DNA of 63,910 nucleotides, filler included. It is 4 parts of 4 records of this genome, joined end to end, with 100 filler letters (N's around TTAATTAATTAA, not from the genome) between each part and the next. Parts side by side here need not be neighbours in the genome. Positions count along the whole stretch, not along the records: positions 23,758 to 51,943 come from SRR20825019_2213; 3 more parts are not named here. One strand, 5' to 3'. A model generated the notes under the pieces. The model saw nothing but the letters and a program-made list of their open reading frames with translations, had not been told where the DNA came from and did no database searches. The translations under genes were made by a program, and so were the position numbers. Each line of letters starts with the position of its first letter. Position 1 is the first letter of the stretch. Of this stretch, positions 23,658 through 58,964 are shown in pieces.

Positions 23658-23757
23658 NNNNNNNNNNNNNNNNNNNNNNNNNNNNNNNNNNNNNNNNNNN
23701 NTTAATTAATTAANNNNNNNNNNNNNNNNNNNNNNNNNNNNNNNNNNNNNNNNNNNN
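23658..23757. other. Artificial contig spacer
   Basis: N run containing the TTAATTAATTAA all-frame stop linker. Confidence 0.99.
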
Positions 23758-31086: not shown

Positions 31087-31848
31087 ATGGATCTGACGCC
31101 CTACCGCACCTTTTTGATCGAACTGGCCGAGACGAGTGGTGACTTCATTCGCCCCTACTTCGCGAATCCCGAACTCAAGGTCGAAACCAAGGCGGATGAC
31201 TCTCCGGTGACCGCCGCTGATCGCGGGGCCGAAAAATTGCTCCGCTCACTCATCAATAAAAAATTTCCTGATCACGGCATCATCGGTGAAGAGCACGGCA
31301 ACGAAAACGAGAATGCCGAATTCGTCTGGGTGCTCGATCCCATCGATGGAACCAAGAGCTTCATCACCGGGGTTCCACTCTGGGGCACGCTGATTGCCCT
31401 CCTCCACAATGGACAACCCGTGCTCGGTTGCATCAATCAACCGATCCTCAACCAACTCATGATCGGTGATGGCACGACCACCACGCTGAACGACAAACGC
31501 GTGCGATGCCGCACGACCAGCCGCATCGAAGACGCCACGCTCCTCACGAGCGATCCACTCAACATTCGCAAAGTTCTCGGCGATCAAGCCGATGGCTATG
31601 TTTCCCGAGCCCGACTCGTCCGCACCTGGGGCGATTGCTATGGATACCTGCTCGTCGCCTCCGGTCAGGCAGATGTGATGATCGATCCTCTGATGTGCCC
31701 CTGGGACATCGCCGCGCTCGTGCCCATCATCCGGGGCTCCGGCGGCGTGATTACCGATTGCGCCGGCAACAGCCCCTACCCCGCCGATTCAATTCTCGCT
31801 GCATCAAAGGAGTTACACCCTCAAGTGGTCGCCGCGTTGAATGCCTGA
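31087..31848 (+). CDS. hisN: Histidinol-phosphatase, inositol monophosphatase family
   Basis: SPVT.AD, GEE, WVLDPIDGTKSF, WGDCYGY and WDIAA motifs. Confidence 0.75.
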   Translation: MDLTPYRTFLIELAETSGDFIRPYFANPELKVETKADDSPVTAADRGAEKLLRSLINKKFPDHGIIGEEHGNENENAEFVWVLDPIDGTKSFITGVPLWGTLIALLHNGQPVLGCINQPILNQLMIGDGTTTTLNDKRVRCRTTSRIEDATLLTSDPLNIRKVLGDQADGYVSRARLVRTWGDCYGYLLVASGQADVMIDPLMCPWDIAALVPIIRGSGGVITDCAGNSPYPADSILAASKELHPQVVAALNA

Positions 31849-31850
31849 AC

Positions 31851-31925
31851 TGTAGAGCGGGATCGCTGATCCCGCCTTTTTAGTTTGAGATTATTCCAAG
31901 GCGGGATCAGCGATCCCGCCCTACA
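31851..31925. repeat. REPIN: inverted pair of GTAG-type REPs between convergent genes
   Basis: TGTAGAGCGGGATCGCTGATCCCGCCTT ... AAGGCGGGATCAGCGATCCCGCCCTACA. Confidence 0.85.
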
Positions 31926-31928
31926 AAC

Positions 31929-32306
31929 TTATTTCTTCCTCGTTTTGCGGGGTGCTTTCTTCGGTGACCAATCGGCCGTGATGCGCGAAGAAAAACCACC
32001 ACGGGCTTTCCAGTTGGCGATGATCGAGAGCTTGCGGGGCTTCAGTGCCGCGCCGAGATCGTCACAGATCTTATTGGTCGCCGCTTCGAAGAAGATCCCC
32101 TCGTTGCGATAGGCGTGAAAGTAGAGCTTCAGCGACTTGAGTTCCACGCAGGTCTTATCCGCCACGTAGCTGATCGTAATGTCGGCAAAATCGGGATGTC
32201 CCGTCATCGGGCACACCGAAGTGAATTCGTGATGCGTGTGCTCGATCAGAAAATCGCGATGCGCAGCAGGATTGGGGAAAGTTTCGAGAATCTTTGGATC
32301 GGACAT
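31929..32306 (-). CDS. queF: NADPH-dependent preQ0 reductase, short type
   Basis: EFTSVCPMTGHPDF (catalytic Cys) and ELKSLKLY QueF motif; RGG. Confidence 0.92.
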   Translation of the reverse strand: MSDPKILETFPNPAAHRDFLIEHTHHEFTSVCPMTGHPDFADITISYVADKTCVELKSLKLYFHAYRNEGIFFEAATNKICDDLGAALKPRKLSIIANWKARGGFSSRITADWSPKKAPRKTRKK

Positions 32307-32316
32307 GATGCTGAAA

Positions 32317-32433
32317 AGTAGTGGGCAGCGAGTAGCCAGTAGCGAGTAGAAATTCCAGCCAAGCTTCTTGTGCTATCTTCCAGATGCCCGCTGCTTGCCA
32401 CTCAATACTCGCTACTGCGCGGCTCCGCCGCGC
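32317..32433 (-). repeat. Two inverted heptamer arrays plus a GGA-triloop hairpin between rny and queF
   Basis: AGTAGTG GGCAGCG AGTAGCC AGTAGCG AGTAGAA (32317-32351); CGCTGCT TGCCACT CAATACT CGCTACT (32389-32416); GCGCGGC-TCC-GCCGCGC (32417-32433). Confidence 0.85.
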
Positions 32434-34014
32434 TCACTTCGCCGTTTCCGTGAAGCGCTGTTCGCGGATCACGGTGACTTTGATCGCACTCGGATATTCC
32501 AATTCGGTTTCGATCTTCTCCCGCAGAATTTTGGCGATCTGCCGGGCACGGTCATCGGTCACCACTTGGGGCGCTACCACCACACGGATCTCCCGCCCGG
32601 CCTGAATCGCAAAGGCCTGTTGCACGCCTTCGATATCAAGGGCCAGTTTTTCGAGATTATCCAAACGCTGCACGTAGCCGGTAATTGATTCGGCGCGAGC
32701 TCCCGGCCGCACCGCCGAAATCGTATCAGCCAAAATGACTAGTCCGGCGTAGACGGTTTCGGGCTTCACTTCCTCGTGATGCGCTTCGACCGCATTGACC
32801 ACGATGGGAGTCTCCCCGTAGCGCTTGATGTATTCCGCGCCGATATGCGCGTGACTGCCTTCGAGTTCTCCGGAAAGTGATTTGCCGATATCGTGCAACA
32901 GGCCCGCCCGCTTCGCGATGTTGGGATCGAGCCCCACTTCGCTCGCGATCATCGAAGCGAGAAACGCGGTCTCGATGGAGTGATCGAGCACGTTCTGATT
33001 ATAGGAAAACCGATATTTCAAACGGCCTAGCAGATCGATGATCTCAGGATGCAACCCGTTGATTTTGAGTTTGGCCACGGCGTCTTCACCGGCCTGTGTA
33101 GCCGTCACGCCGACTTCCTCCTGTGCGCGCTTAACGAAATCCTCGATCGTCGCCGGATGAATCCGGCCATCCGCAATCAAGGCCTCCATCGAACTGCGCG
33201 CGACCTCGCGACGCACCGGATCGAAGGATGAGATCAACACCGTCTGCGGCGATTCATCGATCAGCACGGTCACTCCGGTCGCCTGTTCAAAAGCCTTAAT
33301 ATTCCGGCCTTCGCGACCAATGATGCGCCCCTTCATCTCTTCGCTCGGCAGCTGAATAATGGTCGCGGAAAGATCGTTGTTCGGCTTGGTCGCGAGTCGT
33401 TGCATCGTGGCGATCAACTTGCGCTGCGCTTCCGTTTCCAATTCGCGCTCGGATTTTTCCAGCATCTCGCGACGCATGGCCCGCAATTCATCCTGACATT
33501 CCAACGCGATTTCCTCGCGCAAGGTCTGTTGAATTTCCTCGGCGTCCATTTGCGAAACGCCTTCCAAACGTTTGCGGACACTTTTCGACAGATCGCGGAT
33601 CGCATCGCGCGCCTGCCGCACCGCGGCGTTTTCACGATTCACGCGTTCCTGTCGCTGTTCGACCTGGTAATCCAGCAACGCGAGCGATTCTTCGTGCGCC
33701 CGAATTTCGCGCAACCGCACTTCGGCATCGATTTCCGCCCGCGCAAATTTCTTGGTCATTTCCGAGCGCTTGTGACTGATCTCCTGCGCGGCCTTTTGTT
33801 TCACCTCTTCGGCGGCCACCGCGGCCTCGCGGCGGGCCACGTTCAGCAGCTCGGCAGCTTGTTCATGAGCGACGCGACGGGTATGACGGGTAACCGCCCA
33901 AACCACGCAAAATCCAACGCCCATGCCGAGCACGAGCGCGATCGCCAGCGGCCAATCGAATTGACCACTCGTAGCAAACAACGAAGCGAAATAGACTGGG
34001 TCTGCTCCCATCAA
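32434..34014 (-). CDS. rny: Ribonuclease Y
   Basis: N-terminal membrane helix, coiled coil, KH domain (KGRIIGREGRNI), HD domain (LLHDIGK) and IQAGREIRV. Confidence 0.95.
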   Translation of the reverse strand: MMGADPVYFASLFATSGQFDWPLAIALVLGMGVGFCVVWAVTRHTRRVAHEQAAELLNVARREAAVAAEEVKQKAAQEISHKRSEMTKKFARAEIDAEVRLREIRAHEESLALLDYQVEQRQERVNRENAAVRQARDAIRDLSKSVRKRLEGVSQMDAEEIQQTLREEIALECQDELRAMRREMLEKSERELETEAQRKLIATMQRLATKPNNDLSATIIQLPSEEMKGRIIGREGRNIKAFEQATGVTVLIDESPQTVLISSFDPVRREVARSSMEALIADGRIHPATIEDFVKRAQEEVGVTATQAGEDAVAKLKINGLHPEIIDLLGRLKYRFSYNQNVLDHSIETAFLASMIASEVGLDPNIAKRAGLLHDIGKSLSGELEGSHAHIGAEYIKRYGETPIVVNAVEAHHEEVKPETVYAGLVILADTISAVRPGARAESITGYVQRLDNLEKLALDIEGVQQAFAIQAGREIRVVVAPQVVTDDRARQIAKILREKIETELEYPSAIKVTVIREQRFTETAK

Positions 34015-45792: not shown

Positions 45793-45831
45793 GTTCGCAG
45801 TAAGCCATAAGCTATCAGCGAGATGCTTCTC

Positions 45832-50058: not shown

Positions 50059-50105
50059 GGCCCGCGAAGCAGGCCGCTGTAAGCCTGAAGCAATAAGCTT
50101 TTAGC
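50059..50105 (+). repeat. GAA-triloop hairpin plus heptamer array, left flank of the four-helix-bundle gene
   Basis: GGCCCGC-GAA-GCAGGCC, then TGTAAGC CTGAAGC AATAAGC TTTTAGC. Confidence 0.8.
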
Positions 50106-50135
50106 AAGACGTCTGATCAAATACGATTCTACACT

Positions 50136-50489
50136 GTGAGAGATTTCCGAGAGTTAATAGTCTGGCAGCGTAGTCACCAAATCACGCTGGAACTCTATCG
50201 ACTGAGCAAAAGTTTTCCCAATGAAGAACTCTTTGGGCTCACTAGCCAAATGCGACGTGCGGTCAGCTCCATTCCGGCCAATATCGCCGAAGGTTGTGGT
50301 CGCGATGGAGACGCAGAACTAAAGCGTTTTCTCAACATCGCCCTCGGCTCAGCATGTGAAATAGATTACTTCATCCTGCTTGCAGGTGAATTGGGATACA
50401 TCGATGCCATGACTTCAACAAAGCTAGCCTCTGAAATTTTAGAGATTCGCCGAATGCTCGGGGCTTTCATTCAAAGACTTAAAGCCTAG
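50136..50489 (+). CDS. Four-helix-bundle protein (23S rRNA IVP / Avd-like family)
   Basis: F..L.VWQ, FP.EE.FGLTSQMRRA..SI.ANIAEG.GR and FL.IA.GS..E signature; GTG start. Confidence 0.95.
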   Translation: MRDFRELIVWQRSHQITLELYRLSKSFPNEELFGLTSQMRRAVSSIPANIAEGCGRDGDAELKRFLNIALGSACEIDYFILLAGELGYIDAMTSTKLASEILEIRRMLGAFIQRLKA

Positions 50490-50540
50490 TGCTTTTCGCT
50501 TAGACCTTGAGATTTACCTGCTGATCGCTTATCACTTGAT
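50477..50540 (+). repeat. Inverted heptamer array, right flank of the four-helix-bundle gene
   Basis: ACTTAAA GCCTAGT GCTTTTC GCTTAGA CCTTGAG ... GCTGATC GCTTATC ACTTGAT, the complement of the left nnnAAGC units. Confidence 0.75.
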
Positions 50541-51914: not shown

Positions 51915-51943
51915 GGTGGGCGGGCACGTCCCTGTGCCCGCCG
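51915..51943. repeat. REP-like hairpin at the contig end
   Basis: GTGG followed by the GGCGGGCAC-GTCCCT-GTGCCCGCC stem. Confidence 0.55.
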
Positions 51944-52043
51944 NNNNNNNNNNNNNNNNNNNNNNNNNNNNNNNNNNNNNNNNNNNNTTAATTAATTAAN
52001 NNNNNNNNNNNNNNNNNNNNNNNNNNNNNNNNNNNNNNNNNNN
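51944..52043. other. Artificial contig spacer
   Basis: N run with the TTAATTAATTAA linker. Confidence 0.99.
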
Positions 52044-52068
52044 CGATCCAGATCAGGAGGCTTTGACC

Positions 52069-58732: not shown

Positions 58733-58762
58733 TGGTGCCCGAGGCGAGATTCGAACTCGCAC
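58733..58762 (-). tRNA. 3' end of a tRNA, probably Leu (T-arm, acceptor stem, CCA); likely the att core; cut by the contig end
   Basis: Reverse complement reads GTGCGAGTTCGAATCTCGCCTCGGGCACCA; the anticodon is not in the window. Confidence 0.8.
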
Positions 58763-58862
58763 NNNNNNNNNNNNNNNNNNNNNNNNNNNNNNNNNNNNNN
58801 NNNNNNTTAATTAATTAANNNNNNNNNNNNNNNNNNNNNNNNNNNNNNNNNNNNNNNNNNNN
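58763..58862. other. Artificial contig spacer
   Basis: N run with the TTAATTAATTAA linker. Confidence 0.99.
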
Positions 58863-58964
58863 GAGCGGTTCACCGTTTCACGGAAACGCTGCCCCGCTCT
58901 ATCCATCAGTTTTTCCGCATTTGTGCGGACGTCAGGTGTTTCCATCTGACTGCAAAATGTCTAG
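58863..58964. repeat. Rhizobiales RIME/Bru-RS-like palindromic element
   Basis: GAGCGGTTCACCGTTTCACGGAAACGCTGCCCCGCTCTA hairpin, then a second hairpin ending in CTAG. Confidence 0.7.

Follow-up and report, generated by a model that had tools for sequence, protein, structure and literature searches.

A heptamer-word hairpin between rny and queF in Opitutaceae, a probable gene-less relative of PF05635 cassettes

The rny-queF spacer and its predicted fold

The window, by which we mean the whole stretch of DNA analyzed (63,910 nucleotides), derives from a member of the Opitutaceae whose RNase Y shares 91% identity with the RNase Y of a Cephaloticoccus MAG. N blocks at 23658-23757, 51942-52045, and 58758-58867, centered on TTAATTAAT, are linkers between contigs, and features lying across a block therefore need not be neighbors in the genome. 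The element described here lies on the 28-kb contig of the window, in the spacer between rny and queF, and is read from the minus strand as follows.

32434..34014, minus strand: rny (RNase Y), the upstream gene; ORF with Pfam matches to RNase_Y_N, KH_1, and HD
32436-32434, minus strand: rny stop codon TGA, from reading of the sequence
32417..32433, minus strand: GC hairpin GCGCGGC-GGA-GCCGCGC directly 3' of the rny stop, with perfect 7-bp arms
32382..32416, minus strand: 5' arm AGTAGCG AGTATTG AGTGGCA AGCAGCG GGCATCT, a decayed AGTAGCG-word array
32352..32381, minus strand: 30-nt loop without an ORF, with a small inner stem in the RNA fold
32317..32351, minus strand: 3' arm TTCTACT CGCTACT GGCTACT CGCTGCC CACTACT, the better-kept arm, preceded by a junction-specific ATTT
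32316-32307, minus strand: 10-nt queF leader TTTCAGCATC, between the 3' arm and the ATG
32306-32304, minus strand: queF ATG (leader and ATG together, 32304..32316)
31929..32306, minus strand: queF, the downstream gene; ORF with a Pfam match to QueF

An earlier reading of the sequence alone had given this layout exactly (stop codon, hairpin, 5 heptamers, 30-nt spacer, 5 inverted heptamers), including the absence of an ORF in the loop and the gap of 10 bp between the end of the 3' arm and the queF ATG. Its naming of the flanking genes agreed with the RNase_Y_N/KH/HD and QueF matches in Pfam. The arms pair imperfectly (74-77% across 22-23 nt), with a perfect 12-nt core in a shifted register.

The 3' arm had the highest period-7 score (0.71) of all non-N 35-nt windows in the 63.9-kb window. 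A crude detector of period-7 arrays was unspecific alone, as it reported 4 arrays in the window compared to 0-7 in Markov controls. The pattern of the repeat family described below matched the window 4 times, always within the element and 3 times in the 3' arm, and had 0 matches in 100 shuffles. Scored against the family consensus, the 5' arm reached 21 of 33 and the 3' arm 27 of 33, and against a longer consensus the 3' arm reached 33 of 39, where the maximum for shuffled tails was 11. The layout is likewise that of the family, with a purine-rich arm that has a GCGAGCAT-type end, a loop, and a CTACTCG... arm near a start codon. The element is thus a member of the family with arms far above chance, and by its arm scores it is a moderately decayed copy.

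Folded as RNA, the 100-nt element gave a structure that spans its full length, at -39.6 kcal/mol (z -3.36, a level reached by 1 of 200 shuffles), in agreement with the long stem proposed from the sequence alone. In this prediction, the outer stem comprises 25 pairs interrupted by single mismatches. With flanks included, the RNA fold had a z of -2.30, and 4 of 200 shuffles were as good. The DNA fold preferred the shifted register of 11-12 bp, with a z of only -1.79.

An Rfam search of the element at E values up to 10 returned 13 matches, all far under their gathering scores and none to a preQ1 family; the best had 18.5 bits against a cut-off of 90. No Rfam family therefore fits the element, and a match to a riboswitch or ncRNA model was what the sequence-only reading had named as speaking against it. 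No promoter-like or terminator-like site was found on the coding (minus) strand at 32307-32433. The GC hairpin after the rny stop was considered as an intrinsic terminator and ruled out, since it has no T-run and is thus not terminator-like. Comparable perfect GC hairpins follow the rny stop at 13 of 73 junctions, mostly in the window's clade, beside AAGC, AGTAGCG, and other word types. Because the GC hairpin occurs across several word families, it is a feature of the locus and clade that lies outside the word repeat, and its earlier assignment to the element was not upheld.

Other structures in the window were noted in passing. A near-perfect hairpin at 31847-31931 (28-nt arms, 96% complementary, 19-nt loop) lies just 3' of the queF stop, faces a convergent inositol-monophosphatase gene, and ends in a ...CCCTACA motif; it does not belong to the heptamer elements. 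Since several contigs from the source runs begin or terminate within it, it is another dispersed palindromic repeat. Its matches to miRNA families in Rfam were under gathering scores and were dismissed as spurious. Elsewhere, a single array is found as follows.

45793..45825, plus strand: single AAGC-word array GTTCGCA GTAAGCC ATAAGCT ATCAGCG, 3' of an RNase E/G stop

This array directly follows the stop codon, has no inverted partner, and is followed by a terminator-like hairpin.

A dispersed repeat family and the same junction in relatives

The rny-queF element is a member of a repeat with AGTAGCG/CGCTACT arms that is dispersed through Opitutaceae genomes. The arm pattern was counted in the genomes of five relatives with up to 3 mismatches, and the reversed pattern served as control.

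G003: 350 pattern matches; reversed control, 20
G004: 109 pattern matches; reversed control, 12
G001: 18 pattern matches; reversed control, 6
G002: 15 pattern matches; reversed control, 6
G005: 2 pattern matches; reversed control, 16

When up to 2 mismatches were allowed, the pattern was present in 107 of 151 genomes of the family, and controls mostly gave 0-2 matches. A second contig of the source sample (run X1), of equal depth, carries a copy of the window's 3' arm. Further copies, for which the sequence-only reading had proposed a scan, thus occur both in relatives and on another contig of the source sample. Family hairpins lie at unrelated junctions that include atpD-atpC, gyrB-gyrA, and pheS-pheT, among others. 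One operon (L098, G003:C8:38814-41832) has an AGTAGCG-word hairpin at each of three successive junctions.

We fetched 80 rny loci, 75 of which had queF downstream, with rny-queF spacers of 8 to 826 nt. Insert-free alleles, which had been suggested as a check on the sequence-only reading, were present in 3 of the 75 relatives (L072, 8 nt; L079, 23 nt; L074, 24 nt), and the junction is occupied in 73 of 76 cases when the window is counted with its relatives. The remaining spacers measured 61-240 nt except for the long ones of L017 and L012. The same reading had also suggested looking for a four-helix-bundle gene at this junction; a PF05635 gene was found there in 0 of the 75 relatives. L017 and L012 were considered as holders of such a gene and rejected, as the former has a ferritin-like ORF and the latter no convincing ORF. 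In L017 (5558-6383), this ORF of about 150 aa lies on the opposite strand and takes the place of a hairpin between rny and queF.

The entire spacer of insert-free L072, TTTCCGCC (8 nt), recurs in L029 after the 3' arm, which indicates that the elements have the rny stop on one side and the native queF leader on the other. The window's leader TTTCAGCATC together with the queF ATG is the counterpart of this same spacer. Most spacers were, as judged by eye, paired inverted arrays of short words, and 42 of 71 (40-300 nt, window included) had a fold z of -3 or less, a rough figure from 20 shuffles each. The words vary among relatives and include AGTAGCG, (T/A)AAGC, CACGAAA (period 9), GGGTTT, GTGACAA, AGTTGGT, CACTAAT, and others. 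In L003, L058, L020, L064, and L059, the arms have a period of 9-11 nt with a core of 6-7 nt (CACGAAA, CACGAAT, CACTAAT, CGCTAAT).

An AGTAGCG-type 3' arm was present at 25 of 76 rny-queF junctions (the window and 24 relatives; score of at least 20, compared to a null maximum of 11). Of these copies, 15 carry [AT]TT[TC]CTACTCG, which among AGTAGCG copies elsewhere was seen only in L087. This junction-specific sequence suggests that the AGTAGCG copies at rny-queF go back to one old insertion that was inherited vertically. When 18 junction copies were aligned, the arms were 80-95% conserved and the loops could not be aligned. The 3' arm scored higher than the 5' arm at 20 of 25 junctions, lower at 3, and equal at 2; only the 3' arm was kept at 5 junctions and only the 5' arm at none, in a count made with no selection on either arm. 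Decay of the 5' arm in several lineages means that the rny-queF junction can do without an intact stem.

Word labels mapped on a tree of RNase Y and QueF required at least 39 changes over 76 leaves, with labels that were partly assigned by hand and with "other" lumped as one state. Unrelated words occupy the junction in L049/L052, in L045/L050/L058/L033, and in L029/L030 despite 92-96% DNA identity of the flanking genes. The nearest relative of the window, L001, has an AAGC-type hairpin, and the window and L002 have AGTAGCG. The repertoires of further genomes are given as pattern matches, with reversed-pattern controls in parentheses.

G121: AGTAGCG, 54 (1); GCTTA (AAGC), 2 (23); CACGAAA-type, 8 (0)
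G155: AGTAGCG, 0 (0); GCTTA (AAGC), 67 (19); CACGAAA-type, 32 (0)
G156: AGTAGCG, 12 (1); GCTTA (AAGC), 1 (24); CACGAAA-type, 38 (0)
G157: AGTAGCG, 2 (1); GCTTA (AAGC), 92 (9); CACGAAA-type, 13 (0)

Six regions of G121 hold seven further AGTAGCG hairpins, and four of these hairpins (three regions) were followed to orthologous junctions. AGTAGCG was present at all four in the distant G003 and at one in G156; otherwise, G155, G156, G157, and G158 had hairpins of other words at the same four junctions. No empty site was found among the recovered orthologues of these four junctions. Chimeric and doubled copies were also seen (L101, L013, and L014). The chimera L101:1501-1660 has an AGTAGCG-word 5' arm that ends in GGGCATG and a 3' arm of another word (AATCCGC); such a copy may have formed midway through the replacement of one word by another.

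Gene-bearing PF05635 cassettes

The sequence-only reading had described the rny-queF spacer as an empty copy of the architecture of another cassette in the window.

50059..50535, plus strand: comparison cassette, a PF05635 four-helix-bundle gene between inverted AAGC/CAGC-word arrays (ORF 50136-50489)

The ORF encodes a 23S_rRNA_IVP/PF05635 four-helix-bundle (4HB) protein (Pfam E 6.7e-38), and the cassette is flanked by a sigma-54 response-regulator gene and a histidine-kinase gene. Cassettes were found at the same regulator-kinase junction in four relatives (L111 in G001, L112 in G004, L195 in G155, and L196 in G157), which indicates that the gene-bearing cassette is old and stable, whereas the gene-less hairpins turn over. 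The AGC core said to be shared with the rny-queF arms is a superficial likeness, as the AAGC/CAGC words of the 50059 cassette belong to a different word family. The description as an empty copy therefore held insofar as the element falls in a gene-less class of PF05635 cassettes; its counterparts are the AGTAGCG cassettes of relatives and not the cassette at 50059.

Seventeen PF05635 genes exceeded the Pfam cut-off in the first five genomes, and at least 13 of them, as judged by eye, lie between inverted word arrays, with a word particular to each. L113, a PF05635 gene between pheS and pheT, has AGTAGCG arms. We searched its protein in 151 genomes and examined the flanks of the best 30 loci. 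By a strict count, at least 2 AGTAGCG units were present on both sides in 20 of the 30, so that AGTAGCG/CGCTACT arms do flank a PF05635 clade, in keeping with the earlier proposal of a gene-less family member. All 25 loci at least 65% identical to the L113 ORF were at gyrB-gyrA, pheS-pheT, or gatA?-gatB, and in 18 of these 25, GCGAGC immediately precedes the ATG. The five loci from the same search at 57-63% identity had other arm words or none.

At the pheS-pheT junction of L158, L157, and L154, the PF05635 genes are only 57-62% identical to the protein of the AGTAGCG clade. L158 has AGTAGTC arms, L157 has CTAGA/AGCTAGA-type arms, and the only array of L154 is an AAGCGA one on the upstream side. 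At pheS-pheT, the protein and the word of its arms may change jointly at a constant site.

The gene-less copies at rny-queF share more with these cassettes than the arm word. The GCGAGCAT arm end (...GCAT) was found in 13 of 25 junction copies in sense orientation and in 1 in the opposite orientation. The 5' arm end of the window reads CAGCGGGCAT, and its GGGCAT corresponds to the GAGC|ATG boundary of cassettes that carry the gene. Judged by its arms, the rny-queF element is presumably a gene-less form of the AGTAGCG cassettes, since the same arms and the same arm end enclose a PF05635 clade elsewhere. No PF05635 ORF lies in its 30-nt loop, and the gene-bearing forms are at other junctions. 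The loops of the gene-less copies held no ORF remnant, and blastn against gene-bearing cassettes matched the arms only. The shared arm end is thus the one observation that points to a deleted gene, and the reverse history, in which a hairpin captured the gene, is possible.

At the level of genomes, PF05635 genes were present in 10 of 10 hairpin-bearing genomes searched and in none of the three genomes with insert-free rny-queF junctions. Two of those three, the sisters G159 and G160, were insert-free at 4 of 4 comparable junctions. At least 20 arm matches were counted by eye in 21 of 25 genomes with an AGTAGCG-clade protein (at least 65% identity) compared to 33 of 126 without one, in a set of MAGs whose kinship was ignored. 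G004 has 109 arm matches, yet no AGTAGCG-armed gene was found there. Likewise, G013 has no PF05635 match and has word hairpins at 3 of 4 junctions; its hairpin is of the type with a 9-11-nt period. The regulator-kinase cassette of G157 has CAGC-word arms and the abundant arrays of that genome are GCTTA-type, so the match between the words of gene and arrays is only approximate there. G013 and the many array genomes without a close cognate gene rule out a strict dependence of the hairpins on PF05635. Taken together, the link between hairpins and PF05635 across genomes is mixed and loose.

Proposed origin, rival explanations, and known systems

We consider it fairly probable that the spacer between rny and queF is a gene-less AGTAGCG-word hairpin, old and by now partly decayed, that is related, outside rRNA genes, to the PF05635/S23p-carrying intervening sequences (IVS) of 23S rRNA, and we propose that it acts in RNA processing. 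The element would descend from a gene-bearing cassette or its arms, with loss of the ORF. Insert-free spacers of only 8-24 nt and the lack of a terminator or promoter in the spacer argue that rny and queF are co-transcribed, in which case the element would be made as RNA and would fold into the predicted structure, a stem of about 25 bp that encloses a smaller one. If the rRNA IVS are taken as a model, RNase III would cut the longer stem, so that rny and queF would become two messages, each protected by a stem at its new end. Processing by RNase III is favored by the analogy with the Coxiella IVS, by the predicted stem of about 25 bp, and by the RNase III gene, which was present in 5 of 5 relatives searched. 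The base of the hairpin would keep the stop codon near the start codon, and this may explain why tight operons tolerate such inserts. The 3' arm may have been co-opted into the queF leader and kept by selection, and the 5' arm, hence the stem, would be decaying in the lineage of the window.

Strand comparisons bear on whether the RNA itself is under selection. The sense fold was better than the antisense fold at 43 of 71 junctions and the reverse held at 27 (Wilcoxon p 0.007; the sequences are not independent). When a fixed 25-pair structure was imposed on 18 copies, 398 of 449 cells were paired in sense compared to 389 in antisense, which was not significant (p 0.10), and of the 18 consensus pairs from RNAalifold only 3 had changes on both sides. 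Given these last two results, selection at the RNA level is not established. A count of orientations by simple ORF rules was dropped for conflicting overlaps in GC-rich loci.

A serious rival, although we regard it as unlikely, is a purely selfish palindromic repeat that acts at the DNA level, like REP/REPIN or MITE elements, and has no RNA role. Its insertion into permissive gaps between stop and start codons would outpace deletion, and the 3' arm would be kept since its deletion harms the queF start region. Dispersal of the family at high copy number, the chimeric and doubled copies L101, L013, and L014, a 5' arm in decay, and the non-significant strand test on the fixed structure all agree with such a repeat, as does the fast turnover of words, with at least 39 label changes over 76 leaves and unrelated words between near-identical flanks. 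It accounts less well for arms that are 80-95% conserved at a junction where the loops cannot be aligned, and for an RNA fold that is more significant than the DNA fold. Random insertion also fits poorly with junctions that are filled in many genomes (73 of 76 at rny-queF, and all sisters recovered at four more). We give far less weight to a regulator specific to this locus, whether a preQ1-type riboswitch, an attenuator or terminator, or a site of RNase Y autoregulation. The element does lie immediately upstream of queF with a conserved 3' arm, and queF is controlled by riboswitches in other bacteria. However, no Rfam match came near its gathering score and none was to a preQ1 family, no T-run terminator is present, the same sequence family occurs at many unrelated junctions, and relatives have spacers of 8-24 nt or unrelated hairpins. 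The riboswitch and terminator readings were rejected on the Rfam result and the missing T-run. It is equally hard to credit that local slippage and hairpin-templated repair, unrelated to the four-helix-bundle cassettes, produced the spacer; tandem heptamers can arise in this way and the arms permit register shifts, but copies from other loci and other genomes agree with the arms, including the non-repeat GAGCAT end.

Beyond the preferred reading of a gene-less hairpin with a proposed role in RNA processing, a wider scheme can be put forward, although it is doubtful. Operon junctions may be fixed, hairpin-filled "slots" that are overwritten from time to time by whichever word family is active in the genome; activity would depend on the resident PF05635 protein, a pentamer whose gene itself has these words on either side. 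The rRNA-IVS proteins and the bacterial heptamer repeats would then be halves of one protein-guided, structure-targeted copy-and-replace system that also serves as mRNA processing signals. If this were true, the AGTAGCG copy of the window would be the relic of a family inactive in its lineage, and the slot of the sister G001 would already have been rewritten with an AAGC word. The PF05635 gene of G001 itself (L111) has arms of mixed AAGC/CAGC words.

In one bacterial family, then, gene-less heptamer hairpins and PF05635 cassettes have common arms down to the boundary of arm and ATG. They fill the stop/start gaps of housekeeping operons (rny-queF, atpD-atpC, gyrB-gyrA, and pheS-pheT), and the site of a hairpin persists while its word is replaced between species with flanking genes that are 94-96% identical. 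This raises the question of whether the elements serve as signals for mRNA processing, are mobile, or combine the two. The Avd protein of diversity-generating retroelements is related to the PF05635/S23p proteins, which, to our knowledge, have no known function; we likewise know of no explanation for the tandem heptamer repeats of bacterial intergenic regions, which have been a puzzle for decades. A literature search, with supplements and subscription journals outside its scope, did not find heptamer hairpin cassettes or gene-less forms outside rRNA genes, and none among the matches listed treated heptamer repeats and the four-helix bundle together.

Several known systems share part of this organization. 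The REP/BIME and REPIN-RAYT elements of Proteobacteria are short palindromic repeats dispersed in the intergenic gaps of operons, with families that differ between related genomes; in REPIN-RAYT, one gene, an IS200-type Y1 transposase (RAYT), is flanked by the same repeats in inverted orientation. The rny-queF family resembles them in its dispersed palindromes in operon gaps and its repeat-flanked gene. In contrast, the flanked gene of the AGTAGCG family is not RAYT but encodes a PF05635 four-helix bundle of about 120 aa without a known catalytic fold, and the arms are tandem 7-nt words, unlike those of REP/REPIN.

Cyanobacterial STRR sequences are intergenic direct repeats of heptamers. TAACTGA heptamer direct repeats occur in intergenic regions of Beggiatoaceae, Cyanobacteria, and Bacteroidetes, with a patchy distribution across phyla, and the study that describes them places them on the upstream side of start codons, within a few nucleotides, where the leader lacks a canonical ribosome-binding site (PMC4679880). 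The arrays described there are mostly single and direct, with one inverted case, and the accessible text of the paper has 0 mentions of four-helix-bundle genes, IVS, or S23 (PMC4679880). The 3' arm at rny-queF is similar to the TAACTGA repeats in having 7-nt words just upstream of a start codon; the rny-queF family differs from them in that its arrays pair into hairpins and are linked with PF05635 cassettes.

The 23S rRNA IVS have the same plan as the rny-queF family, namely terminal inverted repeats, a long stem, and a loop with an optional PF05635 gene. IVS without an ORF are known in enterobacteria, and both systems thus include gene-bearing and gene-less forms. For the helix-45 IVS of Coxiella burnetii, one report describes heptamers (three full and one degenerate) directly upstream of the S23p ATG, in numbers that differ between strains, and a 28-bp stem that RNase III cleaves at the first repeat (PMC4990558). 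The predicted 25 pairs of the rny-queF element would likewise make a stem long enough for RNase III. Unlike an IVS, the element is found in an operon, with a protein-coding gene on either side, and not in helix 25 or 45 of 23S rRNA, and the arms of its family consist wholly of heptamer words, which differ by family and change from one sister species to another at a site that stays the same.
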